64,000 bases of DNA from a virus (IMGVR_UViG_3300011013_000009:1-64000), one strand, 5' to 3'. Counted from the stretch's first letter, positions 1-14,648 are shown. Numbers and translations: made by a program. The notes: a model not told the origin generated them from the sequence alone.

Positions 1-136
1 AGGTATTACAATAGATTATCTTATAGAAGAAAGAAGAATATCCTTTGGTGTTAATAGTACCCAAAGTGTATATAATTGGTGTAGTCAAGAAGATATCTTC
101 ACTGATAAGGATGAATTGATTGCGCAAATTGTATAA
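1..136 (+). CDS. partial hypothetical protein (5' truncated), member of micro-gene array
   Basis: Open frame from nt 2 (GITIDYLIEE...LIAQIV*) ending TAA at 134-136 inside the junction repeat. Confidence 0.6.
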   Translation, partial: GITIDYLIEERRISFGVNSTQSVYNWCSQEDIFTDKDELIAQIV

Positions 137-148
137 ACCAAAACAAAG

Positions 149-352
149 ATGAGTAAAGAAGAAATTAGTAAAGTGTTACATAACAACTTAAAAGTTGTAC
201 CAAAAGCATATGATATGCATGGTGAAAACTTTAACTGTGATTGTCATATGGAGATAACAGATAGAGCATACCAAATAATAGGTGAAGGAGATATTGATAA
301 AGGAAAGACTATTGTTGATGAATATCTAAAAGAAACTAATGGACAGTTATAA
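149..352 (+). CDS. hypothetical protein (67 aa)
   Basis: ORF track; starts MSKEE in junction repeat. Confidence 0.75.
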   Translation: MSKEEISKVLHNNLKVVPKAYDMHGENFNCDCHMEITDRAYQIIGEGDIDKGKTIVDEYLKETNGQL

Positions 353-367
353 ACCAAAACAAAGAAG

Positions 368-493
368 ATGAATAAAGAAGATTGGACTCCAAATATATGC
401 ACAACTTGTGGTTATACTACTACAATATTATTAGGTACAAAAGTTTGTACAAACATAGGTTGTTCTACTAATAATAAAACCAAAAGAAGATGA
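368..493 (+). CDS. small zinc-ribbon-like protein (41 aa)
   Basis: Translated by hand: MNKEDWTPNICTTCGYTTTILLGTKVCTNIGCSTNNKTKRR; CxxC...CxxxxC; bounded by junction repeats. Confidence 0.65.
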   Translation: MNKEDWTPNICTTCGYTTTILLGTKVCTNIGCSTNNKTKRR

Positions 494-696
494 GTAAAGA
501 AGAAGTAAAGTATATAGTATTTGCAGAGGATTCTACTGCTATGATGCAAGAGTCACTAATACAACAAAGTAACCCTTTGACAAAAGAAAGAGCTATTGAG
601 TTTGCAGAAAGAATTAAAGATAGAGATAACTTATTCTGTGTTACCATTCTTAAAAGAGTTAGTAAAGAAGAATTAAAACCAAAAGAAGATGAGTGA
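490..696 (+). CDS. hypothetical protein (68 aa)
   Basis: ORF track; MSKEE start, LKPKEDE end (both repeat-encoded). Confidence 0.75.
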   Translation: MSKEEVKYIVFAEDSTAMMQESLIQQSNPLTKERAIEFAERIKDRDNLFCVTILKRVSKEELKPKEDE

Positions 697-835
697 CTAT
701 ATTAAAGGACAAGAGGACCTAATTAAATATATTAAACAACAATTACTTTTAATGGCTAATAATTCACCAGATGAAACTATTATAGAGGATGTTGTTAACT
801 TTTTACAAAACCTTAAACCAAAAGAAGATGAGTAA
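689..835 (+). CDS. hypothetical protein (48 aa)
   Basis: By hand: MSDYIKGQEDLIK...NLKPKEDE*; bounded by repeats. Confidence 0.65.
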   Translation: MSDYIKGQEDLIKYIKQQLLLMANNSPDETIIEDVVNFLQNLKPKEDE

Positions 836-1001
836 AGAAGAATTTTATAGTAGACCGTCCTCAATAGGTTATTTGTATTGGTTAGATTCCAATAATGTTA
901 TTAAACAAGGACCTTCATTATGGGGTATAGGAAGATATAGAAGTTGGTTACTATTAGATAAGATACAAAATAGTAATGATTTTATTAAATGGTTAAATTA
1001 A
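828..1001 (+). CDS. hypothetical protein (57 aa)
   Basis: ORF track 789..1001; start moved to 828 (MSKEEF) inside the junction repeat. Confidence 0.65.
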   Translation: MSKEEFYSRPSSIGYLYWLDSNNVIKQGPSLWGIGRYRSWLLLDKIQNSNDFIKWLN

Positions 1002-1008
1002 AACAAAG

Positions 1009-1149
1009 ATGAATAAGAAAATACACATAGCAAGTAGAGGTATGGGTAATATTGATAAGGATGGTAACATTACTGATTTTAAGTTGTTATCATATGATTT
1101 AGTTACACCACCATATGGAATTTTTATTAAACCAAAACAAAGAAGATGA
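1009..1149 (+). CDS. small protein (46 aa) resembling a prohead-protease fragment
   Basis: By hand: MNKKIHIASRGMGNIDKDGNITDFKLLSYDLVTPPYGIFIKPKQRR. Confidence 0.55.
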   Translation: MNKKIHIASRGMGNIDKDGNITDFKLLSYDLVTPPYGIFIKPKQRR

Positions 1150-1424
1150 TAGTAATTAGAGATTTAAGTTCATATAGAGATGGTGGGACTATTTCGATTA
1201 AAGTGAATATTTCATTTGAAGGGTTTCGTTATGAAGGTGAAATTTGTTTAGACAAAAGAATGAGCGATAAAGGTGATGGTAAACTTTGGTTCGGTTATCC
1301 TGAAAAGGAAGGCTCTTCGATTATAGAAGATGTTAAACTTTTAGAACACATTAAAAAAGGAGTAATAGACTACAAAAAGTATCAGAATTTTAAACTTGAT
1401 GAATTAATAGAAAACTTAAAGTAA
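1146..1424 (+). CDS. hypothetical protein (92 aa)
   Basis: ORF track; start in junction repeat. Confidence 0.75.
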   Translation: MIVIRDLSSYRDGGTISIKVNISFEGFRYEGEICLDKRMSDKGDGKLWFGYPEKEGSSIIEDVKLLEHIKKGVIDYKKYQNFKLDELIENLK

Positions 1425-1426
1425 AG

Positions 1427-1606
1427 ATGAGTAAAGAATTAAAACTTACAATAAGTCCATATGAATGGGAAGGTAAAGAAGAATTTACTTATGAAGTAAG
1501 AGGTTTTAACATCTACTATTCAAAAGTTGGATTCCAAACTTATAAAGAAGCGGAAAAAGAAGGTCAATTAAAAGTTGAAGAATTAAACCAAAACAAAGAT
1601 GAGTAA
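1427..1606 (+). CDS. hypothetical protein (59 aa)
   Basis: By hand: MSKELKLTISPYEWEG...EELNQNKDE*. Confidence 0.65.
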   Translation: MSKELKLTISPYEWEGKEEFTYEVRGFNIYYSKVGFQTYKEAEKEGQLKVEELNQNKDE

Positions 1607-1706
1607 TATAGAAATAATAGAAATCATTTTATTATGTTACATTGCATTTACTGTAACAATAATTGCTAATCGACAATGGCAAAACAAAGATGAAGAAATA
1701 TATTAA
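1599..1706 (+). CDS. small membrane protein (35 aa)
   Basis: By hand: MSNIEIIEIILLCYIAFTVTIIANRQWQNKDEEIY. Confidence 0.55.
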   Translation: MSNIEIIEIILLCYIAFTVTIIANRQWQNKDEEIY

Positions 1707-1839
1707 ATTTTTACTATTTAAAAACAGATTAAGAGATTACGGAATATCACCTTTAGATATATTTTTTCCAATTGTTAGTTGGATTAGTATTTTTAGCACA
1801 ATATTTCTTATTTACTGTTTATTTAATATTCTTAATTAA
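1690..1839 (+). CDS. small membrane protein (49 aa)
   Basis: By hand: MKKYIKFLLFKNRLRDYGISPLDIFFPIVSWISIFSTIFLIYCLFNILN. Confidence 0.55.
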   Translation: MKKYIKFLLFKNRLRDYGISPLDIFFPIVSWISIFSTIFLIYCLFNILN

Positions 1840-1851
1840 AACCAAAAGAAG

Positions 1852-2109
1852 ATGGATGAAGATAAATATATTTTAACTTGGGCAAAAAGAAAAGGCTTTA
1901 ATGTTGGAACATTTATTAAGCCAATACAAATACTTGATGAATGGAATAACCCTACTGCAAATGATATTGAACTAATTGAAAATCCACTTTACTTTGACTA
2001 CAAGGGTAATCTTTGTACAATGAGAAAAGGTGTTAAAGCTGGTGGGTTTTGTATTAGGGATTCTTATGGTAATTGGGCTAAAAAACTAAAACTAAAAGAA
2101 GATGAGTAA
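1852..2109 (+). CDS. hypothetical protein (85 aa)
   Basis: ORF track; ends LKLKEDE in repeat. Confidence 0.75.
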   Translation: MDEDKYILTWAKRKGFNVGTFIKPIQILDEWNNPTANDIELIENPLYFDYKGNLCTMRKGVKAGGFCIRDSYGNWAKKLKLKEDE

Positions 2110-2413
2110 TATGGAAGCAATAATTTTATTTTTTACGATAATTGGAATAATATTCTTATTCAATTTTATAACTAAACAAATAGAGAAAAAACAAAACCAA
2201 AGAATTGAAGAACATAAAAAAATATACCCAGAATTGGAAGCACTGGGAAGATTGTATAAACAAGATAATTTTGATACAAAAAAAGAAAGTTTATTAATAA
2301 TGCAACATCATTTGAGGTGTTCTAATGTTGAAGCACTTCGACAAAATTTTACGATCTCAGATTATCATAATAAAAAATACAAGGAAGAGCACTTAAAATT
2401 GTTCGGATGTTAA
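2102..2413 (+). CDS. hypothetical membrane-anchored protein (103 aa)
   Basis: ORF track; N-terminal hydrophobic helix. Confidence 0.75.
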   Translation: MSNMEAIILFFTIIGIIFLFNFITKQIEKKQNQRIEEHKKIYPELEALGRLYKQDNFDTKKESLLIMQHHLRCSNVEALRQNFTISDYHNKKYKEEHLKLFGC

Positions 2414-2431
2414 TACTAAACCAAAACAAAG

Positions 2432-3037
2432 ATGAAAAAGATTAACATATGTATTTACGGATATGGACAAGAATTAGTTCAAGGAACTTGGTCTGATGAA
2501 GAAGTAGAAACGTTATTACAAGAATTAAATGACGACAATGACTTATCAACTGTAATATGGAACTTAGAAGAAATACTACCAGATAGTTACGATTGGTATG
2601 ATAGAGATGACCTATGTCATTATTATGGAGGCTTATCGGATAGCTGTAAGATAATAATATCATATGATGATAAAGAAGATACATATGATACTTTATTTGA
2701 TTTAGAAGCAATTGGTGCAATAATAGAATTTGAAGAAGTATATAATTATACTGGTAAGGACAATGTTATTACAATAATATCATCAGAAAAAGGCACAATG
2801 TTTGATGCTGATATTATATTAGAAGATGATGAAGAATTTGACTTATCAAAGTTACGGGTAGAATCAAAAGGAATAATATTCAACAACTATGAAAACGAAT
2901 TAATAACTAGTATATACTACAAAGACAAACAAATAGATGATGAAGGATGTGAAACAAATGGTAAAGGCTTTTATGCTTACCTAGATAAAAAGAAAAATCA
3001 ATGTATAGAAAAAGAAGAAGAAACAAAGAAGAGTTAG
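2432..3037 (+). CDS. acidic hypothetical protein (201 aa)
   Basis: ORF track; very D/E-rich. Confidence 0.8.
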   Translation: MKKINICIYGYGQELVQGTWSDEEVETLLQELNDDNDLSTVIWNLEEILPDSYDWYDRDDLCHYYGGLSDSCKIIISYDDKEDTYDTLFDLEAIGAIIEFEEVYNYTGKDNVITIISSEKGTMFDADIILEDDEEFDLSKLRVESKGIIFNNYENELITSIYYKDKQIDDEGCETNGKGFYAYLDKKKNQCIEKEEETKKS

Positions 3038-3159
3038 CACTGGCATGGATAATAATAAGTATAGCTAGTATAATAAGTATAATAGTATTCCCACCAATAG
3101 TATTAATAGCTATAGTAATATACGCTATATGGACATTATCAAGACATTATTATTTTTAG
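3001..3159 (+). CDS. small membrane protein (52 aa)
   Basis: By hand: MYRKRRRNKEELALAWIIISIASIISIIVFPPIVLIAIVIYAIWTLSRHYYF. Confidence 0.5.
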   Translation: MYRKRRRNKEELALAWIIISIASIISIIVFPPIVLIAIVIYAIWTLSRHYYF

Positions 3160-3845
3160 TCAATTTTTAGTCCATTTTTAGCTATTTCAGCAATGTATTT
3201 TTAGACCAAAGTACTTTTATTTTTAGAATGGTTTTTAGATTTAGTTACTACCAGGCGAAGAATAGGTGTGGTATGTAGTACGTTTACCTTCGGTCCTTTC
3301 AGGCCCTTCGGCAACCCGTATAAGTTCAAGACGCGGATATAGGCATTCCAGGAGTATAAGTGTGTAGTATGGAGTAAAGAATGGATAAAGTCCCCTTTCT
3401 ACCGGTATACATTATTTTTAGGGGGCATATGCTCTTTATCTCAACACCAGGTAGGTCCGGCCACCAGGAATTATTTTTAGTCCATTATACGTGCTTTTAG
3501 AGTCATTTACTTTTAGGCGGAATGGTCGTTATTTTTAGTCCTATATTTAGATTTACTTTTAGACCAAATGCCTTTTACTTTTAGACCAGGAGGCCAGGAA
3601 AGACGGTTTTATTTTTAGTCCAATATAATGTATTTTTAGATGCGTATGTATATATGCGTGTATATATATAGTTATTTTTAGACGGATATGCTATGTATTT
3701 TTAGTTTAATATATAGTCTGGGTATTCTATTTTTAGGGCAATATCCGCACTTTTAGTGCAGATCTGTTCGGTTCTCTAGCTATACGGAGTAAATTATTTT
3801 TAGAAGATCATTAGGATTTATGGATTTTTATTCTTATATTTAGAG
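3150..3845 (+). repeat. non-coding block of ~20 strand-biased (T)TTTTAG repeats; candidate origin or packaging region
   Basis: TTTTAG recurs every 10-60 nt, always in the same orientation; no ORF of 60 aa or more. Confidence 0.7.
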
Positions 3846-3867
3846 TATAAACATAAAAAGTATTATT

Positions 3868-3972
3868 ATGGAATTAAAGATATTAGAAGATTATTTACAG
3901 GAATTGGTAGATAACGGGATTATTCATCTAGATATAAAGGATGACATATTATATATAGTTAAACGATTATGA
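3868..3972 (+). CDS. small hypothetical protein (34 aa)
   Basis: By hand MELKILEDYLQELVDNG...; follows promoter 3812, ATGA overlap with next gene. Confidence 0.55.
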   Translation: MELKILEDYLQELVDNGIIHLDIKDDILYIVKRL

Positions 3973-4247
3973 AATATTTAGGACAAGTAGAAATAGAAAG
4001 AACAGAAGATATCTATGAAGATACAGAAACTGCTAATGTATATAAAATAATAACTGAAAAGACGTATGATATCGGAATAGAATCTGTGCCGATTGAATTT
4101 AACAGCCGTAGCTACAACACTGCGAATAGCGAAATATATATTGAGATATATCAGGATTCGATGATGCATCCGAATAGTTTATATATAGAAAAAGACCCGG
4201 GACAAGTAGAACTTTTGTTGAAAAAGATTTTAGGTAGCGAAAAATAA
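3969..4247 (+). CDS. hypothetical protein
   Basis: ORF track. Confidence 0.7.
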   Translation: MKYLGQVEIERTEDIYEDTETANVYKIITEKTYDIGIESVPIEFNSRSYNTANSEIYIEIYQDSMMHPNSLYIEKDPGQVELLLKKILGSEK

Positions 4248-4313
4248 ATTTGCTAAAAGATTAGGATCTTTGAAATAAAGGTCTTATATTTATAGAAATT
4301 AAAATTTAAAGAT

Positions 4314-4514
4314 ATGAAAAAAGGACATTATATGATTACAGATCTGATCGCAGAACTTAAGATTTCATTAAAAAAAGTACCTGCGGTACCTAATTATAAT
4401 AATATTATTAAAATAGTACCTGCTTTAGAACAGTGGGTTAAAGAAAACGGAGATCTGGAATTTGACCCAGATGATATGGAAAAGTTTTTAATGGCAAAAA
4501 AATCAGAGAGATGA
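4314..4514 (+). CDS. hypothetical protein
   Basis: ORF track; promoter cassette upstream. Confidence 0.75.
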   Translation: MKKGHYMITDLIAELKISLKKVPAVPNYNNIIKIVPALEQWVKENGDLEFDPDDMEKFLMAKKSER

Positions 4515-4720
4515 TAGAAGTAAAAATGACAGTTAGATATCAGGATATATTAATATCTGCCGGGAGATATATTCCAACCGGGACATCGTTTTTGGGTAAG
4601 AAGCTTTATAGAAATATTGATAATGGACAAATTGTTTCCATTGGAAATTTTGAGATTAAAATGATTAATAAATATAATGAGTCTCATGGTATCAATGAGT
4701 GGAAAAACATTGTGGGATAA
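4511..4720 (+). CDS. hypothetical protein
   Basis: ORF track; 4-nt overlap with the previous gene. Confidence 0.65.
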   Translation: MIEVKMTVRYQDILISAGRYIPTGTSFLGKKLYRNIDNGQIVSIGNFEIKMINKYNESHGINEWKNIVG

Positions 4721-4794
4721 AAGACGGAAAATAAAGTTAGCAAAATGCTTGACACGCATTGATATTATTCTTATATTAGTGTAAATTAAAAGAT

Positions 4795-5040
4795 ATGACA
4801 AATTACAAATTAGAATTAGAAGGACATTATGTCACAATCGAGATGAATGAATTTGAGGATAACGTTGCTCAGATTTTTAAAAATAACGATTTAATAGCTG
4901 AATATAAATTCGGTGGAGCTGGAGCAACTCATATATATCATTTGGAAGGTAAAAAACTTATTGATTTACTGGTTGCTATATTATATGAGCAAGCCGACAA
5001 AACTGTTGAAGTGTTAGCTAGCGAAACAAAAAAAGTTTAA
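4795..5040 (+). CDS. hypothetical protein
   Basis: ORF track; TTGACA-N17-TATATT promoter upstream. Confidence 0.75.
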   Translation: MTNYKLELEGHYVTIEMNEFEDNVAQIFKNNDLIAEYKFGGAGATHIYHLEGKKLIDLLVAILYEQADKTVEVLASETKKV

Positions 5041-5112
5041 AAAAAGTTAGCAAATTGCTTGACACGCATTGATTTATTTATTATATTTATATAAATTATA
5101 AAATTAAAAGAT

Positions 5113-5376
5113 ATGACAAAAGGAATTAATAAGCTATATTATAGCTTTAAAGAAATTATTGCAATTTACGCAGAAGCGTTGGAAAATGAAACGGGAGAGC
5201 CTATTGAAAATCTAGAAGCTGTTATGGATTTTGATAATTACAAAATCGAGTTTGATGCAAATGATGATAAAACTGTTATTAAAATATGTGGAGCTTTTAT
5301 ACAATTTGAAATGGATGACACAGATGTATCTGTTGTTAATTATATGGATGGCTCTGGCTGGTATGTTGGATATTAA
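5113..5376 (+). CDS. acidic hypothetical protein
   Basis: ORF track; promoter cassette upstream. Confidence 0.75.
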   Translation: MTKGINKLYYSFKEIIAIYAEALENETGEPIENLEAVMDFDNYKIEFDANDDKTVIKICGAFIQFEMDDTDVSVVNYMDGSGWYVGY

Positions 5377-5440
5377 AAAAAGTTTAAAAAAGATTAGGAT
5401 AATTGAATTATTATTCTTATATTAGTGTAAATTAAAAGAT

Positions 5441-6022
5441 ATGGAAAAAAGAAATACGCCGGCGGGCAATACGTATTGGGATGAAAATGGAGCATACCAA
5501 AAAGAATTAAATGAACTATATAACAAACTAGTTCCGATGAGCGGCGATGCCGAAACAGTACATGGAGAATTAGTTAGAGCAGTAAATAGATTATATTACG
5601 AATATTGTAACAATGGGAATTGCAATGCTATTGTACAAGAATATGTCGAGCAGGAATATACATGTTATAATTGTGACGGTACTGGTAATAGAGATTATCA
5701 CGACCACGAGATTGATGAATGGGAGTCTGTAGAATGTGATGACTGTTATGGCGATGGCTATCAATATGAAGAAGAAGAAGGCGATCGTTATATGGATTCA
5801 TATTATGACAGAATGTTAGATTTCATAAGAGATCATGTTTCAAATTCCTATCCGGTAGTTGATGCATTGGAAAGATTTATATTAGATGGTCCTGGCTATT
5901 CGAATTATCAATTTAATGATGCTGAGTATGAGTATTACAATGATGTAGTAGATACTGTAATGCATTATGTATTGAATTCAGAGAATATACCTAATCCGGA
6001 ATATAAACCAGAAAAAGTTTAA
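5441..6022 (+). CDS. acidic protein with DnaJ-type zinc-finger motifs
   Basis: CYNCDGTG and CDDCYGDG (CxxCxGxG pair). Confidence 0.75.
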   Translation: MEKRNTPAGNTYWDENGAYQKELNELYNKLVPMSGDAETVHGELVRAVNRLYYEYCNNGNCNAIVQEYVEQEYTCYNCDGTGNRDYHDHEIDEWESVECDDCYGDGYQYEEEEGDRYMDSYYDRMLDFIRDHVSNSYPVVDALERFILDGPGYSNYQFNDAEYEYYNDVVDTVMHYVLNSENIPNPEYKPEKV

Positions 6023-6086
6023 AAAAGATTAGGATAATTGAAATATTATTCTTATATTTAAAGTATAATAATAAAAATTAAAAGAT

Positions 6087-6263
6087 ATGGGAAATTTTAA
6101 AAAATATTTAAAAAAAGAATTAGACAGGTTGATTAAAGACGCAGAAGAAATTTGGGAGTCAGAAATCAATCCGGATACAGGAGCTCAATTAACATATGAT
6201 GAGCTTCAAGAAGTAGATAGAGAATTAGAAAGATTATATAGGATGAAAAACAATCCTTTATAA
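6087..6263 (+). CDS. small hypothetical protein (58 aa)
   Basis: By hand MGNFKKYLKKELDRLIKDAEE...; follows promoter 6030 and AAAAGATATG leader. Confidence 0.7.
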   Translation: MGNFKKYLKKELDRLIKDAEEIWESEINPDTGAQLTYDELQEVDRELERLYRMKNNPL

Positions 6264-6264
6264 A

Positions 6265-6730
6265 AAAGCTTGCCATAGCTATTAAATTAGGCGTGGACCT
6301 TTATTGATATGTGATAGCTTCACATAGGTGTTGATCAACCGGTTAAAGTAATCCATGTAGGCAAGTAAATTGTGTAATAATCCAACTACGATAACTTCAT
6401 GGGGGATAGAGGTGAATATAGTGTAGCTTGAAAGATAGCACCCGAATAACTCTATTACACATAAATTTGATTACTACAGGAGAGATAGGTATCACCTTGT
6501 ATCCTGCGGAGGCTTATAATCTCACGTGCTGGAGGGGTAATCATTTAAATGCGTACACCCATGACAGAAGGGCGTAGTTCAATTGCACCTGCCGCTAAGC
6601 AGGAAGATACAATAGCAAAACCTCTGAATATTCTGTCAGGTATTATAAGTGGGCCTTGGAGTCAGGACTCCCAGACTGAGTAGGTTAGTTTTTCATATCT
6701 CTTGCCTACCATATGTGGCCCACTTTATTT
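6265..6730 (+). ncRNA. putative large structured non-coding RNA (~460 nt), family not recognised
   Basis: ORF-free and GC-elevated; nested stems 6268-74/6360-66, 6291-97/6352-58, 6308-14/6320-26, 6371-79/6453-61, 6468-74/6537-43, 6562-69/6631-38, 6588-92/6599-603, 6647-55/6717-25, 6658-63/6666-71, 6680-84/6705-09. Confidence 0.65.
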
Positions 6731-6826
6731 TTAGAATGATATGACACATTTATTTTTAGAATAATATATAGCTATTTTTAGAATGTATTTTTAGAATAAT
6801 ATTTAGTTTTAGATTTGGATTTTAGA
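6726..6826 (+). repeat. second cluster of TTTTAG repeats
   Basis: About 6 same-orientation copies directly after the structured element. Confidence 0.6.
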
Positions 6827-6874
6827 AATAGATTTATTATATTATAGTATATTAACCATAAAAAGAAAGACCAA

Positions 6875-7156
6875 ATGGCAAAAACAAAAAGAACACCAGA
6901 ATTTCAATTCGGAATTGAATTGACAAGACCGTGGAGTCCAGAAATGTACTCACACAATGATCAAGTAAGAGAAGAAGCTCAGACAATTCTCAATGAAATG
7001 ATTGACAACGGAACAGTAACTGTTAACGGGACTGATATCAGAACCGAAGATACACTTACAAAACAAACCGTAGCTGATCTAAAATATTGGCAATTGGATA
7101 AGTTACACAAAGAACTTAACCTACCATTAACAGTAGGCTTTGTGGGATATAATTAA
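6875..7156 (+). CDS. hypothetical protein, paralog of 7913..8281
   Basis: Shared FQxGIExTxPWSxEMYxHNDxV and C-terminal GFVG. Confidence 0.8.
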   Translation: MAKTKRTPEFQFGIELTRPWSPEMYSHNDQVREEAQTILNEMIDNGTVTVNGTDIRTEDTLTKQTVADLKYWQLDKLHKELNLPLTVGFVGYN

Positions 7157-7178
7157 TATTTTTTAATTATTATTATTT

Positions 7179-7205
7179 AGGGGCACAGAAATGTGTCCCT
7201 TTTTT
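7179..7205 (+). terminator. intrinsic terminator
   Basis: AGGGGCACA-GAAA-TGTGTCCCT followed by a T-run. Confidence 0.8.
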
Positions 7206-7322
7206 ACTGTCCGGGCAGTAAGAGCTGTGAATAACTTTTTAAAAACGTTTTTAGAAAAGATTAGGATAATTGAATTATTAACCTTATATTAGAGTATTAA
7301 TAATTTAAAAAAATAAAAATAT

Positions 7323-7496
7323 ATGAATAGAAAATTTGAAGACATGAAGTTTGTGAAGAATGATGTAGCAGTTTGTGGCCATTGTGGATGTGGTGAAGTT
7401 AAAGAAGAGTTTTATACCGGAGTAATGATATGTGAAGAATGTCAGATAATTGAAGGTGATATTAATTATGTTCCCTATGATGAATATTATGATTAA
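7323..7496 (+). CDS. TFIIB-type zinc-ribbon-like small protein (57 aa)
   Basis: By hand ...VCGHCGCGEVKEEFYTGVMICEECQII...; promoter 7262 upstream. Confidence 0.65.
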   Translation: MNRKFEDMKFVKNDVAVCGHCGCGEVKEEFYTGVMICEECQIIEGDINYVPYDEYYD

Positions 7497-7567
7497 AATA
7501 GTTTAAAAATAATTAGGTTAGTTGAAAAATTAACCTTATATTTAAGAAATATTAAAAATTAAGAGAT

Positions 7568-7840
7568 ATGAAAATTAAAATTTTAGAAGGCTATGATGGC
7601 TTTGAAAGAAGTGTTAATGGCACAGTTGATTTGGATGGTAATAATGTGTATAAATTTGAATTAGACACTTATGACGGTATGACAAGTATATATTTGATAG
7701 ACGGGTATATTAGAATTAACTTAGAGGATGAAGATGAGTGTGATAGATATATTATTGAGGATGGTATTGAGATATATGACGAAATATTAGATTTTGTTAA
7801 TAACGAAGGCTATGACTTTATTGGAGTAGATTTTGCATAA
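7568..7840 (+). CDS. acidic hypothetical protein
   Basis: ORF track; promoter cassette. Confidence 0.75.
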   Translation: MKIKILEGYDGFERSVNGTVDLDGNNVYKFELDTYDGMTSIYLIDGYIRINLEDEDECDRYIIEDGIEIYDEILDFVNNEGYDFIGVDFA

Positions 7841-7912
7841 AAAAAGTTGCTAAAAGATTAGGATCTTTGAAATAAAGTACTTATATTTAAGAAATAATAA
7901 AAATTAAAAGAT

Positions 7913-8281
7913 ATGGCTAAAAAGAAAAAAGAAAAAGTATTCCAGCACGGAATTGAAATTACAAAGCCTTGGAGCAAAGAGATGTATGCTCACAATGACA
8001 AGGTTGCAACGGAGGTAAGAGATGAAATTTGGGAAAGATGGGCTAAGGCAGTTTTAGATGCAAACATAGACAAAAATGGCGCATGGGAATATGATGCTAC
8101 TGAGGAAATGGAAGACATCCAGATAGCTGTTACATGTTACGGATTTGGATTTGGGCATAGTATAGGAGATGTAGAGGATGAATTTATAGATGAAATGGAA
8201 AATCTTCCTTATTACCGACTAAATCAAGTAGTAGAAGATTTAGAAATAGAATTAGAAGAAGGGTTTGTTGGCTTTAAATAG
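7913..8281 (+). CDS. hypothetical protein, paralog of 6875..7156
   Basis: Shared motif; promoter cassette. Confidence 0.8.
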   Translation: MAKKKKEKVFQHGIEITKPWSKEMYAHNDKVATEVRDEIWERWAKAVLDANIDKNGAWEYDATEEMEDIQIAVTCYGFGFGHSIGDVEDEFIDEMENLPYYRLNQVVEDLEIELEEGFVGFK

Positions 8282-8360
8282 CCAGCAAACTTTTTTTACT
8301 TTTTATTAGGATCTCTGAAATAAAGGTCTTATATTTAAGTATAATTAAAAATTAAGAGAT

Positions 8361-8657
8361 ATGAAGAAACCAGAAAAACAAGTTTTGTCCTTTAGTGGAT
8401 TTGAGAAGATGCTCCAAGATTTATATCAGGACGCATATTATGAATTAGATTTTATTAATCCTGTACTATGGTATGCAATATATATTGCTGCAGAGGCTGA
8501 TGCTGATAACACAGTTAATGGCGCAATGGCATATTATGACAATGTAGAAATGATGATGATGTTCAATACTACTTTTTTAGATGCAATGGTAATGCTCAGA
8601 GGTAAATTGACAATGTTGGATGAGTTTGCAATTAAAGATTCATATAGATTAAACTAA
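8361..8657 (+). CDS. hypothetical protein
   Basis: ORF track; promoter cassette. Confidence 0.75.
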   Translation: MKKPEKQVLSFSGFEKMLQDLYQDAYYELDFINPVLWYAIYIAAEADADNTVNGAMAYYDNVEMMMMFNTTFLDAMVMLRGKLTMLDEFAIKDSYRLN

Positions 8658-8661
8658 GAAG

Positions 8662-8799
8662 ATGATGAAAGAACCTAATTTTAAAGAAGAACCAAAACTA
8701 TGGGTTTTGTGGAATATGTTTACTTATAAAAATAATGAAGAAACTGCAATTAAGTTATTAAAACAAAAAATGTGGTTACAACGAGACAGAATAACCTAG
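8662..8799 (+). CDS. small hypothetical protein (45 aa)
   Basis: By hand MMKEPNFKEEPKLWVLWNMFTY...; preceded by degenerate junction repeat. Confidence 0.5.
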   Translation: MMKEPNFKEEPKLWVLWNMFTYKNNEETAIKLLKQKMWLQRDRIT

Positions 8800-8858
8800 G
8801 CGTGTCACCATGCTGTAAGAATCCTAGTGATGTCTCTTAAATTTAAAACCAAAAGAAG

Positions 8859-8978
8859 ATGAAGAAGATAATAGCCTCCATGAAGGAAATATATGATGCA
8901 ATGAAACCGAGTGTACACCGTAACAAGAAGAAGTATACTAGGAAAGATAAGCATAAAAAAAAGTTCCCGAAAGATTAG
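8859..8978 (+). CDS. small basic peptide, ArfA-like (39 aa)
   Basis: By hand MKKIIASMKEIYDAMKPSVHRNKKKYTRKDKHKKKFPKD; preceded by TAAAACCAAAAGAAGATG. Confidence 0.55.
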   Translation: MKKIIASMKEIYDAMKPSVHRNKKKYTRKDKHKKKFPKD

Positions 8979-9028
8979 GTTATATGAAATATTATTCTTA
9001 TATTTAAGAAATTAAAAAATTAAAAGAT

Positions 9029-9199
9029 ATGTATAAGATTATTAAATTTATTTGTATATGGGTGTTACCTATAGGATTAGTAAAATTACTTCCACTTGAT
9101 AAGTTATTCGGTATTGACAGCATTGGAGAGCAATTGTATTACAGAATAGATGACTCTAAAAAACATAGAGGCGCGGGTATATTAATTCGTAAATCTTAA
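9029..9199 (+). CDS. small hypothetical protein (56 aa)
   Basis: By hand MYKIIKFICIWVLPIGLVKLL...; promoter 8976. Confidence 0.6.
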   Translation: MYKIIKFICIWVLPIGLVKLLPLDKLFGIDSIGEQLYYRIDDSKKHRGAGILIRKS

Positions 9200-9265
9200 A
9201 AAAAAGTTCCCGAAAGATTAGGACTTACGGAAAACCTACCTTATATTTATATAAAATTAAAAGAT

Positions 9266-9430
9266 ATGTTAGACGTAAAAAGATATTCAGAAAACTTCCA
9301 ACTTAAGTGTTGGGCGACTTATTATAATGTATATGAATTCATTATAAAGCACGGAGAGTTATTAGCATTAGATACTTACCCGACACCGGTAGTAAATTAT
9401 TTTAAAAATTGGATTGATTCCAGAAAATAA
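9266..9430 (+). CDS. small hypothetical protein (54 aa)
   Basis: By hand MLDVKRYSENFQLKCW...; promoter 9219. Confidence 0.6.
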   Translation: MLDVKRYSENFQLKCWATYYNVYEFIIKHGELLALDTYPTPVVNYFKNWIDSRK

Positions 9431-9436
9431 AGAGAC

Positions 9437-10012
9437 ATGAAAGAATACAAATATTATGATAGAGTATTAGCGCTGGCTACATTAGCACACGACGATCAGA
9501 AAAGAAAATATTCTGATGAGATGTATATAACACATCCGATTGCTGTAGCAAAGATATTAGATGATACTTTCGAAGTTCCTGAAGATCTTATCTATGCAGC
9601 ATTATTACATGATGTGATAGAAGACACTACCGTTACTAGATCGATGTTAACAATTCAGTTAATGATGATCTTTAACGACCAGAAATTAGCCTATAGGGTA
9701 GTTAACCTAGTAACAGAACTAACCGATGTATACACCAGTGAAGCATATCCAGGTTTTAATAGAAGGCAACGAAAGCTATTAGAGCATGACAGGATAGCTA
9801 GAATTAGTGATGAAGCAAAGTTAATTAAGTTAGCAGACCTTATCCACAACACCAAGTCTATTGTCGAAGAAGATCCGTCTTTTGCGAAAGTGTATCTTAA
9901 AGAGAAAGACCATATGTTAAAGGAAATGATGGATGCACGAAAATCTGACACGTTTACTTTGGAATTTGTCCAGCTATATGAATTAGCAAAACATCATAAT
10001 AAAGTTTCATAA
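9437..10012 (+). CDS. HD-domain protein, RelA/SpoT-hydrolase (Mesh1/SAH)-like (p)ppGpp hydrolase
   Basis: AHxxQKRK, YITHPIAVA, AALLHDVIEDT, V..LT, IKLADLIHN motifs. Confidence 0.85.
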   Translation: MKEYKYYDRVLALATLAHDDQKRKYSDEMYITHPIAVAKILDDTFEVPEDLIYAALLHDVIEDTTVTRSMLTIQLMMIFNDQKLAYRVVNLVTELTDVYTSEAYPGFNRRQRKLLEHDRIARISDEAKLIKLADLIHNTKSIVEEDPSFAKVYLKEKDHMLKEMMDARKSDTFTLEFVQLYELAKHHNKVS

Positions 10013-10070
10013 AGATTAGGTTATATGAAATATTATTCTTATATTTAAGAAATAATAAAAATTAAGAGAT

Positions 10071-10226
10071 ATGTATAGTTTAAATTGTAATTATTATGAT
10101 CGTGAATTCGAGACGATCGATGACTTAATTAGTGATGTTCTAGATAGTGGCATGGACCCGAATTATGAAATTACCCGCAACGGAGTAACCACGGGCGAGT
10201 GTTTATTTGATTTAATTGGATTTTAA
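10071..10226 (+). CDS. small acidic protein (51 aa)
   Basis: By hand MYSLNCNYYDREFETIDDLISDVLDSGMDPNYEI...; promoter 10017. Confidence 0.7.
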   Translation: MYSLNCNYYDREFETIDDLISDVLDSGMDPNYEITRNGVTTGECLFDLIGF

Positions 10227-10309
10227 AAAAGTTTAAAAAAAGTTAAGGAAAAGGTTGACACGCATTGATCTTTTCCTTATATTTAAGTATAATTTAAAAT
10301 TTAAGAGAT

Positions 10310-10426
10310 ATGAAAAAGAGAAAAATTGAAGCCGGAGTATTCTTCGCAGGAGTATTAGGATTTGCCGTATTGACAGCAATCCTTGTTTATAATGTATTGT
10401 TTAACGGATTAGTAATATGTATTTAA
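10310..10426 (+). CDS. small membrane protein (38 aa)
   Basis: By hand MKKRKIEAGVFFAGVLGFAVLTAILVYNVLFNGLVICI; promoter 10255. Confidence 0.65.
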   Translation: MKKRKIEAGVFFAGVLGFAVLTAILVYNVLFNGLVICI

Positions 10427-10427
10427 G

Positions 10428-10625
10428 ATGAGAGAGTTATTTGATATGTTCGACAATAAGATAGCTGTTATAAAGACAGCAATGATAATGATGTGTACAA
10501 TATTGTTTGTTGTAGGATCATGTTTAATCAATCCGATGATATTACTTTACACGGCGTTGGTAGCGTTGGGTATAGCATTATTATATTGTATATTCTTAAT
10601 AATATACATGTTTGTAGATGATTAA
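10428..10625 (+). CDS. small membrane protein, 2 TM
   Basis: ORF track; hydrophobic. Confidence 0.65.
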   Translation: MRELFDMFDNKIAVIKTAMIMMCTILFVVGSCLINPMILLYTALVALGIALLYCIFLIIYMFVDD

Positions 10626-10696
10626 AAAAGTTTAAAAAAGATTAGGACTTACGAAATAAAGGTGGTATATTTAAGTATAATTAAAAATTTAAAAAA

Positions 10697-10894
10697 ATGA
10701 GTAAAAATAAAGGTTACGGTTATGATAGACAAGACGCAGTCATCAGCAAATTCCGAAGAGATGTAAAGTCATCTAATAAGACGTCAGCAGTAGGTCAAGC
10801 AATTGCAAGAGGCAAGAAAGCTAAGAAAAAAATCGAAGAGACTGAAGAGGTAAGATTTTCTCCCAGAGCTTTAATAGAATTAAATAATGGGTAA
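10697..10894 (+). CDS. basic hypothetical protein
   Basis: ORF track; promoter 10643. Confidence 0.7.
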   Translation: MSKNKGYGYDRQDAVISKFRRDVKSSNKTSAVGQAIARGKKAKKKIEETEEVRFSPRALIELNNG

Positions 10895-11624
10895 GATATA
10901 TGTAAGCACCGGTGCTGTCATCTCAGATGTTGATAGCACCAAGCTTTACCTGAATGAGATAAAGCAGGCAAAGTTATTGACCCAGGAAGAAGAAAAGGCG
11001 TTAGCCGAAAGAATAAAAGACGGAGACCAATCCGCAGTTAACAAGTTAGTAGAATCTAATCTCCGCTTTGTAGTACAGGTTGCTAAGCAATACCAGGGAA
11101 TGGGAGTTGAGTTAGAAGACTTGATTGGCTTTGGTAACTTAGGATTATTCGAAGCTGCGAAAAGGTTTGAAGCTGATAGAGGAATCAAATTCATTAGCTT
11201 TGCAGTATGGTATGTTAGAGCTGAATTACAAAAGGCGTTGAATGACACCGGAAGAACAGTAAGGATACCTTCCCACAAAACAATGACAGAAGAATACTCA
11301 ACCGTTAGCACCGGAATGAAAATAGGTGAAGGAGAGGATTCGGAAACCTATGCGGATAGATATCTTCCCGCTGAAAAGGAGACTCCACAGAGTGCATTGC
11401 AGGATTTGAAATATGACTTGACAAGAGCATTAGGATTGTTAAAGCCTAAGCAGAGAACGGCTATTGAAATGTTTTATGGTATTGGGTATGACTATCCAAA
11501 GCCGATGGAGCAGATAGCTATCGAGTTATCAGTAACCGGAGAGCGAGCGAGGCAGTTAGTTCGTCAAGCGGAGCTCGGATTGAAGAAAATGTCAGGAATA
11601 AAATTGTTAGAACAATACCTATAA
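10887..11624 (+). CDS. RNA polymerase sigma factor, sigma70 (RpoD/RpoS-like) family
   Basis: Region 1.2 YLNEIKQAKLLTQEEEKALA; region 2 LVESNLRFVVQVAKQY, EDLIGFGNLGL, KFISFAVWYVR; region 4 IAIELSVTGERARQL. Confidence 0.92.
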   Translation: MGKIYVSTGAVISDVDSTKLYLNEIKQAKLLTQEEEKALAERIKDGDQSAVNKLVESNLRFVVQVAKQYQGMGVELEDLIGFGNLGLFEAAKRFEADRGIKFISFAVWYVRAELQKALNDTGRTVRIPSHKTMTEEYSTVSTGMKIGEGEDSETYADRYLPAEKETPQSALQDLKYDLTRALGLLKPKQRTAIEMFYGIGYDYPKPMEQIAIELSVTGERARQLVRQAELGLKKMSGIKLLEQYL

Positions 11625-11683
11625 AAGATTTGGTACTTTGAAATATTATTCTTATATTTAAGAAATAATAAAAATTAAGAGAT

Positions 11684-11908
11684 ATGAAAGAAGGAGTAAG
11701 TTTAAACGTAGTAGTATTCATAGTATTCCTGATACTAAAATTAGTAGGAGTGATAACATGGAGTTGGGTTTGGGTAACGAGTCCAATTTGGATAGGAGTG
11801 ATATTAGGCATATTGGTTTTGATAGCAATCGAATTATTGAAAGCGTATTTAGATAAAAGATCCAATAAGAGATTCGAAGAGTATAGAAAAAATAAGTTTA
11901 ATAAATAA
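11684..11908 (+). CDS. small membrane protein
   Basis: IVFLILKLVGVITWSWVWVTSPIWI, a widespread phage membrane-protein motif. Confidence 0.8.
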   Translation: MKEGVSLNVVVFIVFLILKLVGVITWSWVWVTSPIWIGVILGILVLIAIELLKAYLDKRSNKRFEEYRKNKFNK

Positions 11909-11913
11909 GAGAT

Positions 11914-12156
11914 ATGAAAGATTATAGTAAAATGACAACCGATGAATTGGTTGAGGAATTAGACAGATTAGAATTAGGATTAGAAATGAACTTGGTGATG
12001 GATGGAAGCGGAGAGTTAGGCGATGTTATCGGCAAAGGATATTATGAAGACATTAATGCTATCGAAAAGGAATTGCAGACAAGACCTGATAACCCTTATA
12101 AGTTCGATGGCAATATCGATCCCGATGATTATTTTACCGATGATTTACCTTTCTAA
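11914..12156 (+). CDS. acidic hypothetical protein
   Basis: ORF track; ends DDLPF (SSB-like tail). Confidence 0.75.
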   Translation: MKDYSKMTTDELVEELDRLELGLEMNLVMDGSGELGDVIGKGYYEDINAIEKELQTRPDNPYKFDGNIDPDDYFTDDLPF

Positions 12157-12266
12157 TTCAGGAAAAAAAAGTTCGCAAAAAGGTCGACTCGTATTGATAT
12201 TATTCTTATATTTAAGAAATAATAAAAATTAAGAGATATGAAAAATAATAAAAAAAGATTAGAGAT

Positions 12267-12506
12267 ATGAAAGAAGGTAACAAGGTTAAGATAATAGTTT
12301 GGACTGATAGACGCAGTGAGAAACAAACAATAGACTTAGATGCTAGCCAATTGGAAAGCGCTGTAAGTTCAGGACATGACAATGATTGGAACTGGAATAT
12401 TGATAAAATTAAATATCACTTAAATAGTGGAGATAAGAAAGGCACCACAGATATAACAAGATATCATGGTGGTGGTTCTGATGCTGTTTATTGGGAATTA
12501 AAATAA
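12267..12506 (+). CDS. hypothetical protein
   Basis: ORF track; flanked by a 21-bp direct repeat. Confidence 0.75.
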   Translation: MKEGNKVKIIVWTDRRSEKQTIDLDASQLESAVSSGHDNDWNWNIDKIKYHLNSGDKKGTTDITRYHGGGSDAVYWELK

Positions 12507-12570
12507 TAAAAAAAGATTAGGTTAATTGAAATATTATCCTTATATTTAAGAAATAATAAAAATTAGAGAC

Positions 12571-13521
12571 ATGAGCAATATTTATGAACCGGCCAGGTTA
12601 AATGGCAAATTAGTAGCAAAGAACATCGCTACAGGGAGTATCGCTCCGGAGGGATTGATTAGAGATATCCAAATCCAAAATGCTGAGAAGCAAGGACAGG
12701 TATTGGCAGTTGATCCGCATAATGGCAGAGTAACGAGACTCCCAGCTTCAGTAGTCGGAAAGGCTCCGGCGGAAGTGGAAGATCCTAAGCTATCCTTTAT
12801 GACAGTAGTTGAAAAGCGAGACCCGAAGGATATGTTCGACAATTTGGAGAGACTGACTAAAATGGTAGGCAGAGGAATCCAACCATCCTTGGTAGTAACC
12901 GGAGGCGCCGGATTGGGTAAGACTTATTTGGTTAAGAAAACATTAGCTGATATGGGCTTAACGGAAGCTAAGGAATTCGTTCACTTTAAAGGAAGAGCAA
13001 CTGCGGCGGGATTGTTTGTAACGCTGTATGAGAATGAGAATAAGATTATAGTGTTGGATGATTGTGATAGCGTGTTTAAGGATGCCGATGCAGTGAATTT
13101 ATTAAAAGCGGCATTGGATAGCTATGACACACGAAGGATATCATATATCAGTACTAAGCCGTTAAAGGATCAATACGGAGACCCAGTGCCAAGACACTTT
13201 GAGTTTACCGGTAAGATAATCTTTATATCCAACCTAAGCCAAGCTACGCTGGATGAAGCAGTTAAAAGCCGTTCCTTTGTATCAGACATCACAATGACGC
13301 AGGAACAAATGTTTATCCGAATAGAGCAGTTAATGGAGAGTATGGAGACAAGGATTCCAGAGACAGCTAAGAAGCAGGCATTAGAAATAATGAAAGAGTT
13401 ACATGAAAAGTATAGTGGCGTTGAGATTAATTTGAGAAGCTTTATTAAAGCGGCAAGGATATGTGCAATGGGATTTGATGATCCGACTACTATGGTAGCT
13501 GAGCAAATTATTAATTTATAA
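12571..13521 (+). CDS. AAA+/P-loop ATPase
   Basis: Walker A GGAGLGKT, Walker B IIVLDDCD, IIFISN sensor, SR finger. Confidence 0.85.
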   Translation: MSNIYEPARLNGKLVAKNIATGSIAPEGLIRDIQIQNAEKQGQVLAVDPHNGRVTRLPASVVGKAPAEVEDPKLSFMTVVEKRDPKDMFDNLERLTKMVGRGIQPSLVVTGGAGLGKTYLVKKTLADMGLTEAKEFVHFKGRATAAGLFVTLYENENKIIVLDDCDSVFKDADAVNLLKAALDSYDTRRISYISTKPLKDQYGDPVPRHFEFTGKIIFISNLSQATLDEAVKSRSFVSDITMTQEQMFIRIEQLMESMETRIPETAKKQALEIMKELHEKYSGVEINLRSFIKAARICAMGFDDPTTMVAEQIINL

Positions 13522-13540
13522 ACCATGTCTCTTAGGTTTA

Positions 13541-13566
13541 AGGAGTCGGAAACGGCTCCTTTTTTT
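13541..13566 (+). terminator. intrinsic terminator
   Basis: AGGAGTCG-GAAA-CGGCTCCT plus T-run. Confidence 0.85.
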
Positions 13567-13645
13567 CTTTAAACTTCACCGGTAAAAGATTTGGTAGAAT
13601 GAAAAAAACACCTTATATTTAAGTATAATTTAAAATTTAAGAGAT

Positions 13646-14245
13646 ATGAAAAAATTGAAAAAGCAAAAAGTAAAATTCATCGACAATACCGCAGCTTTAA
13701 AGAAAACGGATAAGAAGCACAAAGACGAAACGAATGATTGTGTGGTGTATGCTTTTATGAATGCATTTGAGGTTAGCTATGATGAAGCACATGAATATGT
13801 TGAAAAGAATTATAGCAGACGAAAAGGCAAAGGTACATTTAATACGGTACACGGATTAGCTGAGATGGGTGGATTGAAATTAGTATTATCTAAGAATACA
13901 GATAGTGATTGTGACACTAGTTATTTGAATGGCAAGACAACTAAGTATATCGGAAGTCATCCTAAAGCGTGTGTTAAAGACAAGGAAGGTAACGCTTATG
14001 GGACTTATATTAAATTAACCAATCCATTATATCCCTTAGGCAAAGGAGAGTATGCCGGATACACAGTAGGGAAGTTTAGATTACAGCATCCTAAGGGAAC
14101 ATATATTATATTAGTGAGTGGGCACGCATTGTGTATCAAAGACGGAGCGACAGTAGATAACTATTCTGAGAATGATATGTTATTCCAATTCTATAACAGA
14201 GATCAGAGAAGAGCTCTTCATATCTTCCAAGTAATTGACAAGTAA
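13646..14245 (+). CDS. hypothetical protein, possible papain-like (Cys-His-Asp) fold
   Basis: NDCVVYA ... GHALCIKDG..VD motifs. Confidence 0.6.
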   Translation: MKKLKKQKVKFIDNTAALKKTDKKHKDETNDCVVYAFMNAFEVSYDEAHEYVEKNYSRRKGKGTFNTVHGLAEMGGLKLVLSKNTDSDCDTSYLNGKTTKYIGSHPKACVKDKEGNAYGTYIKLTNPLYPLGKGEYAGYTVGKFRLQHPKGTYIILVSGHALCIKDGATVDNYSENDMLFQFYNRDQRRALHIFQVIDK

Positions 14246-14306
14246 AAAAGATTTGGTAGAGTGAAATAAAAACCTTATATTTAAGAAATAATAAAAATTA
14301 AGAGAT

Positions 14307-14648
14307 ATGAAAAAGTTTAAAAAGTTTAATTTAGGAGACACCGTTAGAGCTCACGATTTTGAAGGCAATTTGGAAGTAGGAACTATTAATGCCTGTTATG
14401 TAGAAGGCATTGTAGTAGACATTGTTAGAGTAGTAGAGATAGGAGGTTGTATGTGTTATAAGCTTAAGTGTACTAAGAAAGTATTTGGAGGCGAAGAGAT
14501 TAAAGAACACAAAGGCGAAATAGTATTCAGTCCTGTTAATGGCACTAAGACATTCTTCGGTAAAGAATTAAATCAGGTTGTGTTAGTTGAGGCATTTGAT
14601 GAAGACACAGATCCCGCAGGTGGATATGGATTACATTCCCACATTTAA
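14307..14648 (+). CDS. hypothetical protein
   Basis: ORF track; promoter 14253. Confidence 0.75.
   Translation: MKKFKKFNLGDTVRAHDFEGNLEVGTINACYVEGIVVDIVRVVEIGGCMCYKLKCTKKVFGGEEIKEHKGEIVFSPVNGTKTFFGKELNQVVLVEAFDEDTDPAGGYGLHSHI

Follow-up and report, generated by a model that had tools for sequence, protein, structure and literature searches.

Phage genomes are rich in very small orphan genes, and for many of these a function in host takeover or counter-defence is suspected; to our knowledge, the movement of such genes between phages is poorly understood. In T4-type phages (phi1/RB49, PST/T4 and nt-1/KVP40), shuffling by homologous recombination has been proposed for the promoter-early stem-loops (PeSLs), each of which combines a sigma-70-like promoter, a stem-loop terminator and a Shine-Dalgarno (SD) sequence at the boundary of a transcription unit (Arbiol et al., 2010, PMC2839356; Comeau et al., 2014, PMC4122927). 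A function in translation initiation has been proposed for the repeat called SAS in the Cluster K mycobacteriophages (Pope et al., 2011, PMC3203893), and short conserved boundary sequences have been proposed at the mosaic joints of lambdoid phages and mycobacteriophages (PMC3029335). Here, we describe a linker of about 25 nucleotides (nt) that joins 13 micro-genes at the beginning of the IMG/VR virus record IMGVR_UViG_3300011013_000009 (G000), of which the first 64,000 nt were analysed (hereafter the window). The linker differs from both PeSLs and SAS in that it has stop codons in all three frames, lacks an SD sequence and is spread over very distant phages.

Results

The micro-gene array and its phage

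The window covers bases 1-64000 of a linear record of 77,441 bp, such that window base 1 is also base 1 of the contig, and the record is 46% complete according to CheckV. The G+C content of the window is about 30% and nearly all genes are located on the plus strand. The phage is uncultured and marine, and PHROG matches to the large terminase, portal and baseplate wedge genes of the T4 type identify it as a T4-like myovirus. The nearest cultured large terminases are those of Microcystis phage Mel-JY01 (56% identical) and Flavobacterium phage immuto (52%).

Thirteen open reading frames (ORFs) follow one another on the plus strand at 149-3037, each with its start behind a copy of the linker, and nine of these copies are clean and four degenerate (Table 1). 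In a preliminary description of the window, made from the sequence alone, the ORFs had been called unrelated and some copies of the repeat degenerate, and we confirmed both points, as no blastp match was obtained among the 13 ORFs. The claim that the repeat provides the next ATG as well as the C-terminus of the upstream ORF in different frames also proved accurate. The C-terminal peptides LKPKEDE, NQNKDE, KTKRR and KPKQRR and the N-termini MSKE(E)/MNKE are all present, as the upstream ORFs run through the repeat in differing frames. The count of six ORFs below the size cutoff has to be corrected, as seven of the 13 are shorter than 60 amino acids (aa). The distance from the CCAAAA core to the ATG is 4, 5 or 8 bases in the window, and one variant of the linker pattern, with up to two mismatches, has 15 matches against 2.0 expected, a number reached in none of 100 shuffles. 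No Pfam or PHROG family was matched by the cassettes of the window array.

As had been suggested, the array extends beyond the left edge of the window. The ORF at 2-136 aligns with residues 53-98 of a 98-aa linker-preceded cassette in L046 (105-401; 63% aa identity), and the region 2-166 is 78-82% identical at the nt level to L040, L046 and L106, with a match that stops in the linker. Thus, the array is cut by the contig end, since this ORF corresponds to the C-terminal half of a 98-aa cassette family whose members in other phages stand behind a linker. Likewise, the stray copy reported at 8844-8861 is real; it heads an ORF of 39 aa and follows an ORF of 45 aa that itself bears a degenerate copy.

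Linker anatomy and translation geometry

We aligned 247 non-identical copies from 122 loci, all with the commonest spacing, and obtained the consensus TTAAACCAAAACAAAG-ATG-AGTAAA. The conserved span ranges from -16 to +8, counted from the A of the ATG, and no position upstream of -17 is conserved. Positions -14 to +3 of the alignment are partly fixed by the way in which the loci were found; among 98 copies without the scanned 18-mer, the frequency of A at +3 remains 88% and that of T-A-A at +5 to +7 is 61-76%. The linker consists almost wholly of A and C, and the bases CC at -11/-10, C at -5 and G at -1 are near-invariant.

Three stop codons, one per frame, are provided by the linker: TAA at -15, TGA overlapping the ATG and TAA at +5. 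The upstream ORF ends within -21 to +8 at 229 of 286 junctions, with about equal use of the three positions, and because the upstream ORFs end at one of these three stops the intergenic spacing is quantised to +12, -4 or -8 bases. In total, 46% of the linker windows have stops in all three frames; the value is 19% at other gene starts and 1.5% in random windows. The RNA at the junction is predicted to be unstructured, with minimum free energies of 0 to -4 kcal/mol in four junction contexts, no better than those of shuffled sequences. SD-like words at the usual distance were found at none of seven array genes versus 45% of the genes beyond 15 kb.

In Flavobacterium johnsoniae, ribosomes ignore the SD sequence, and initiation is favoured by A at positions -3, -6, -12 and -13 (PMC6847099). 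The linker carries A at all four positions, and it thus resembles this Kozak-like start site of the Bacteroidia in these bases, in its low structure and in having no SD sequence. The preliminary description had taken the repeat for a translational-coupling signal, and a translational role in which an upstream ORF is terminated in any frame and the ribosome then restarts at an SD-less start site would fit all of this geometry.

Promoter-like matches in 1-4400 were at the level of shuffles (33 against 28.9), and one terminator-like site was present in the same region against 1.2 expected. An Rfam scan of 1-8000 returned just one sub-threshold chance match. Four RNA runs contain a share of 0.05-0.06 of the words, from which we draw no claim about expression.

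Gene exchange at the linker

As judged from the points at which homology ends, our comparisons show that the linker is the site where exchange occurs. Blocks of homology to window cassettes end in linkers and are followed by unrelated neighbours in L098, L007, L088 and others. For example, window positions 132-368 are 90% identical to L098, with linkers bounding the match at both sides and flanks that are only 30% and 10% identical, and positions 475-694 are 93% identical to L007 and 78.5% to L088, where the neighbours are again unrelated. In a set of 61 cassette pairs from non-duplicate loci with at least 70% aa identity, the median nt identity is 90% in the 40 nt inside the cassette and 33% in the 40 nt upstream of the linker, as compared to a baseline of 28% for random 40-mers, and the next cassette was random-like in 13 of 13 cases. 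A conserved neighbour gene was found at 10% of the linker junctions versus 34% of other junctions, and when the anchor genes were at least 70% identical these fractions were 16% and 53%, respectively.

Single events can also be recognised. At the position of a single linker in L056, L081 has exactly one additional cassette with a linker copy at either side, and the same type of one-cassette indel flanked by two linker copies distinguishes L114 from L038. Flanks that are 98% identical surround a linker-bounded replacement of 493 versus 478 nt in L046 and L106. Furthermore, two records of 380 kb (G003) and 156 kb (G009) with large terminases that are 29% identical have five cassettes in common at 95.5-98.3% nt identity, in the order A-B-C-D..E in one and D-C-E-A-B in the other, and one of these cassettes is duplicated in a second array of G003. 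The preliminary description had cast the repeat as a recombination point, and this idea has gained support: homology blocks, indels and replacements end at the linker, and the order of the cassettes is not fixed among relatives, as seen from the one-cassette indels and the reordering in G003 and G009, with breaks at the linker.

In contigs from independent marine metagenomes, individual window cassettes are present at 95-100% identity, and the similarity ends at the linkers. One of these contigs matches 678-823 and continues into unlike sequence past the linker, another matches 1149-1434 and has 212 unlike bases ahead of the match, and contig 29 of run X5 matches 993-1124, followed by 224 unrelated bases and then 2418-2488. 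In this analysis, joint skips with a shorter side of 20-25 letters were set aside and longer pieces, such as this contig, were used. We rejected the short-sided joints as variants of the phage described here and treated them as contigs of other arrays that match the linker alone.

The spacing variant of the linker travels with the downstream ORF, as seen in the comparison of 475-694 with L007 and in the L081 insert, and because of this the mobile unit appears to be a linker plus the ORF that follows it. Substitution patterns indicate that the cassettes are real genes under purifying selection. The median ratio of nonsynonymous to synonymous substitution rates (dN/dS) is 0.20 for 63 homologous pairs of linker-preceded ORFs, with 92% of the values below 0.5, and it is 0.09 for both pairs that include window cassettes (ORFs 149-352 and 490-696). 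A few cassettes elsewhere have a known function. In L098 (1590-4093, minus strand), a thymidylate synthase gene and a gene for an ABC-transporter membrane domain stand behind clean or degenerate linkers in an array, and the cassettes are therefore not orphan micro-genes alone.

Distribution of the linker

The exact 18-mer core of the linker was identified in at least 119 IMG/VR stretches. Among the matches listed, the strand bias is 299:1, the median spacing of the copies is 218 nt and one locus of 6.5 kb carries up to 21 copies. Six larger records of 125-380 kb have 10-23 copies each, confined to one to three tight clusters. The large terminases of the larger linker-bearing records are 29-35% identical to that of the phage in the window, with 54% for G009, and no flanking protein was common to the first 20 kb of G000 and the 36 kb around the array of G009. 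In five of the eight records examined the array adjoins a contig end (base 1 of G000, the ends of G001 and G003 and the starts of G004 and G007), possibly because assemblies break in a region that is repetitive and polymorphic, or because the genomes truly end there. A second group, made up of smaller contigs, has one to three linker copies ahead of small genes, beside a DnaB-type helicase gene whose product matches only crAss-like, Flavobacterium and Cellulophaga phages, all of which are phages of Bacteroidota.

In 596 Gb of prokaryote genomes, the core was found in 94 stretches, about a quarter of them in Bacteroidota. Nearly all were single-copy and at chance level; the matches mostly represent chance or a few native gene starts, such as those in three Eudoraea genomes, and the multi-copy matches are a few low-G+C contigs from metagenome-assembled genomes that resemble phage DNA. 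No linker copy was present in the two closest cultured phages, Mel-JY01 and immuto, with two mismatches allowed, and a BLAST search of cultured phages with 36 nt gave chance-level partial matches only (E ≥0.4). In a string search of the searchable literature, the 13- to 15-mers of the linker had 0 occurrences. Since many distant phages carry the linker and cell genomes and the closest cultured phages do not, it is, on the records searched, a property of a pool of phages and not of a host genome or a single phage lineage.

Recombination enzymes

The Phage_integrase (PF00589) and Resolvase (PF00239) domains were not found in G000, G003, G009, G007 and G005, in searches for which the controls were positive in 14 of 14 and 12 of 14 genomes, respectively; three of the records searched are 100% (G003), 96% (G009) and 89% (G007) complete. 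Neither an inverted repeat nor an attC-like hairpin was seen at the junction when four contexts were folded. ORFs for RecA/UvsX-like proteins are present in the two near-complete genomes G003 and G009, and therefore point to general homologous recombination on the short linker.

Coordinates of the array and of the mini-array

Table 1. Linker-preceded genes of the window, with the position of each linker plus open reading frame (ORF); linkers are clean unless called degenerate.
Feature	Position	Strand	Remarks
5'-truncated cassette, 3' part, 44 aa	2..136	+	cut by contig start
Linker 1 (134-157) + ORF 149-352, 67 aa	134..352	+	
Linker 2, long variant + ORF 368-493, 41 aa, 4 Cys	350..493	+	no Pfam/PHROG family
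Linker 3, G variant + ORF 490-696, 68 aa	475..696	+	
Linker 4 + ORF 689-835, 48 aa	674..835	+	weak homologues in L062, L112, L126
Linker 5 + ORF 828-1001, 57 aa	813..1001	+	metagenome contigs span 815-983 and 815-1002
Linker 6, degenerate + ORF 1009-1149, 46 aa	994..1149	+	
Linker 7, long variant + ORF 1146-1424, 92 aa	1128..1424	+	
Linker 8, degenerate + ORF 1427-1606, 59 aa	1412..1606	+	contig of run X4 spans 1424-1606
Linker 9 + ORF 1599-1706, 35 aa, hydrophobic	1584..1706	+	
Linker 10, degenerate + ORF 1690-1839, 49 aa, one membrane-span-like stretch	1675..1839	+	
Linker 11, G variant + ORF 1852-2109, 85 aa	1837..2109	+	metagenome contigs 1835-2088 and 1865-2069
Linker 12, degenerate + ORF 2102-2413, 103 aa, hydrophobic N-terminus	2087..2413	+	contig spans 2040-2415
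Linker 13 + ORF 2432-3037, 201 aa, last linker-preceded gene of the array	2417..3037	+	no Pfam/PHROG family
Mini-array, two genes	8647..8978	+	degenerate linker + ORF 8662-8799 (45 aa), then second unit
Mini-array, second unit, 39 aa	8844-8867 (linker), 8859-8978 (ORF)	+	clean linker

Other upstream signals and genes of the window

A second repeat occupies 4260-14310 (to about 14.7 kb), where a promoter-like intergenic cassette of about 70 nt stands ahead of 18 orphan genes, each of which forms its own unit. Its layout is a -35-like TTAGGA or TTGACA, 17-18 nt, a -10-like TATATT and an A-rich leader that ends in AAGAGAT before the ATG, and by this layout the block at 4.3-14.7 kb looks like an early-promoter repeat of the PeSL type. 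In 15500-64000, many genes have a TATA-like word, ATATTTATATAA, about 10 to 25 nt ahead of the start, which recalls the late promoters of T4; there are eight exact plus-strand copies, of which seven are located beyond 15.5 kb. An SD-like word precedes 45% of the genes in 15500-64000 and none in the array or in the 4.3-14.7 kb block. Since the array, this block and the genes beyond 15.5 kb differ in their upstream signals, the phage has three distinct upstream regimes.

SD-like words are rare (4-8%) in G003, G005, G006, G007 and G009, as well as in Flavobacterium phage immuto (5%), and they are present at 37% of the larger genes of the phage in the window and at 36% in Microcystis phage Mel-JY01. 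Together with the related G001 group (L006/L079/L086/L103), the phage in the window falls in a range of 22-37% for the larger genes, as opposed to 0-10% in almost every other phage with the linker. This would reflect either different hosts or a different late translation mode of this lineage.

The sequence ATTTTTAG occurs 26 times in the window against 12 expected, with 14 copies in the non-coding region 3152-3803 and four in 6727-6794, all on the plus strand. Within the former region, a GC-rich patch at 3235-3500 has no Rfam match and no fold signal (z = +0.87). These stretches are possibly an origin, an array of binding sites or a promoter cluster. A sigma factor of the sigma-70 family with regions 1.2, 2 and 4 is encoded at 10887-11624; homologues were found in G003 and G006 and not in Flavobacterium phage immuto or Microcystis phage Mel-JY01. 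An HD_4-type metal-dependent phosphohydrolase with a SpoT-like HD domain is encoded at 9437-10012, and this gene is present in five of six large linker-bearing phages and absent from both linker-less cultured relatives. The sole sizeable minus-strand ORF that is not nested in a larger plus-strand ORF encodes 185 aa (25426-25983).

Discussion

The linker is best understood as an analogue, at the level of translation, of PeSL shuffling, and not as a strict PeSL because it has neither a promoter nor a stem-loop. Both are short repeats that extend from the upstream stop to the downstream start and separate orphan genes in plastic regions of T4-type phages, and both mark the ends of indels, replacements and shuffling between relatives. 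Whereas the PeSL is the boundary of a transcription unit, the linker, with three-frame stops and without promoter, stem-loop or SD sequence, appears to be the boundary of a translation unit. Furthermore, the same linker is common to phages with large terminases that are 29-35% identical and to a second phage group. Mini-circles from exchange between neighbouring repeats are a trait of the PeSLs.

The similarity to SAS lies in a short asymmetric repeat just upstream of the ATG, in one orientation and ahead of non-structural genes, which is nearly absent from host genomes and sometimes holds the upstream stop codon. However, SAS has an AGGAG SD core, is limited to a single phage cluster, where its copies are scattered and do not form arrays, and has not been connected with gene exchange. 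Homologous recombination on short common sequences at module borders has been invoked for the boundary sequences of lambdoid phages and mycobacteriophages as well, but these are not found at most joints, whereas nearly every joint in the array has a linker. Termination followed by reinitiation at overlapping or close stop/start pairs is established in bacteria and archaea. As in such pairs, the stop and start codons overlap (ATGA) or lie at most 15 nt apart at about 80% of the junctions; the difference is that one fixed sequence serves three frame relations and recurs across genomes here, and that reinitiation is putative.

We propose that the accessory micro-genes of the array form one polycistronic block, probably expressed early, in a plastic region of a T4-like phage. 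Each cassette would consist of the standard linker of about 25 nt plus an ORF. The linker would end the upstream ORF in whichever frame it arrives, at TAA -15, at the TGA over the ATG or at TAA +5, and the unstructured, A/C-rich and SD-less start site would let the ribosome restart or load at the next ATG. Since the linker is common to all cassettes, its copies would be substrates for general homologous recombination, by which whole genes could be deleted, inserted, replaced or reordered, both in a single genome and among phages during co-infection, and the recombination product would always be ready for expression. Compatibility with a common pool of cassettes may then keep the linker identical across very distant phages. 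General homologous recombination on a common patch of 16-25 nt, as proposed for the PeSLs, is the simplest reading of how the exchange would take place. We estimate a probability of roughly 0.65 for this explanation of the array and the linker as a whole.

Several observations weigh against it. A patch of 16-25 nt is short for efficient homologous recombination, and the cassette pairs in the shuffling statistics are not phylogenetically independent. Since the genes abut, a breakpoint in the linker and a breakpoint at the gene boundary are not fully separable. The operon status, the early timing and the reinitiation are all deduced from sequence. The host of the phage is uncertain, and 37% SD-like words in its late genes is unlike nearly all other linker-bearing phages. 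Finally, the other genes of the same phages have plain A/T-rich leaders, and the invariant C and G bases thus do not follow from general start-site rules, which leaves room for a specific reader of the linker.

Such a reader would be a specific trans-acting factor, a protein or an RNA from the phage or its host, that represses, activates or cleaves messages, with the linker as its RNA or DNA target and recombination as a by-product. The T4 proteins RegA and RegB provide a model of a phage factor acting on a class of messages. General rules for SD-less starts do not need the bases CC at -11/-10, C at -5 and G at -1, and the motif is limited to one gene class per genome and all but missing from the genomes of cells. 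This same pattern prompted Pope et al. to suggest a factor for SAS (PMC3203893). However, in a phylogenetic profile of six linker-bearing genomes against two linker-less relatives, which is weak because several records are incomplete and distant, no gene family was present in all of the former yet absent from the latter, and the best candidate was the HD-domain phosphohydrolase in five of the six. A Pfam search for RegA and RegB (PF01818 and PF10715) in five linker-bearing genomes gave no match and is uninformative, as the controls were silent too. The linker is also found in the group with the DnaB-type helicase, and a factor encoded by the phages would therefore have to be very widespread, or else be encoded by the host. 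We consider this explanation, with recombination as a by-product, rather unlikely. Still less probable is the explanation that the linker is merely a favoured sequence for translation initiation, with illegitimate recombination and selection for intact genes causing breaks and gene ends to coincide. It is true that the linker fills the entire intergenic space, so that gene-preserving breaks must fall there, and that it matches the known A-rich determinants of start sites. Against this stand the one-cassette indels, which leave behind precisely one copy of the linker, as is typical of crossing-over between direct repeats, and the neighbour conservation, which is threefold lower at linker junctions for anchors of similar identity. 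Furthermore, the same exact sequence occurs in phages with large terminases that are 29% identical and with differing leaders at their other genes, and the hosts do not use it.

We also considered the possibility that the linkers are compact promoters, each recognised by a phage-directed RNA polymerase or sigma factor, which would yield a leaderless or nearly leaderless mRNA per micro-gene. The conserved span of -16 to +8 is about as long as a phage-type promoter, the conserved first codons would suit an initially transcribed region, and the phage encodes its own sigma-70-family factor. However, the upstream ORFs end inside the linker with a spacing that is quantised by frame, the start codon is invariant although its distance to the core varies (4, 5 or 8 bases), and it is the other gene classes, and not the array genes, that have -35/-10-type or TATA-like elements 20-70 nt upstream, which makes this a very improbable explanation. 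Least probable of all is a true integron-like system with a dedicated site-specific recombinase encoded elsewhere in the genome, which we disfavour. The preliminary description had called the array integron-like, and as an analogy this stands: in both, unrelated accessory genes without promoters of their own follow one another in one direction, joined by a common junction, and the gene content varies among relatives. With a window contig that is only 46% complete, a recombinase gene could be located outside of it. But the Phage_integrase and Resolvase domains were not found in five records with positive controls, so the analogy does not extend to a tyrosine or serine recombinase, nor to the attC-like hairpin, as the junction is without inverted repeat or fold; moreover, the 25-nt junction includes the start codon. 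Because neither an IntI-type or other site-specific recombinase nor an attC-like hairpin was found, the array is, on the records searched, not an integron.

Stop-restart combined with homologous recombination is thus the explanation that we favor, and it may be extended to a broader hypothesis, which we offer as tentative. The linker might serve as a universal adaptor across unrelated marine phages, shared by T4-like genomes of 125-380 kb and by the second group with the DnaB-type helicase. Any ORF between two copies would be terminated in three frames and restarted, such that a pool of micro-genes could cross phage families, possibly with a dedicated factor. In the phage described here, the adaptor could also be part of a stage switch, from linker-type early starts to SD-type late starts.

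Our findings present an unusually clean and environment-wide case, in which a 25-base stop-restart linker marks the points of whole-gene exchange in more than 100 contigs, and in which exchange crosses phage lineages with only 29% identity between their large terminases. What sets the case apart is chiefly its breadth, together with a transfer between lineages that is very recent. The linker offers a sequence handle with which the accessory gene pool can be catalogued in metagenomes, as well as a natural test bed for SD-less translation and for recombination on very short homology. If the broader hypothesis is true, ready-to-express micro-genes would circulate as a common pool across phage families.

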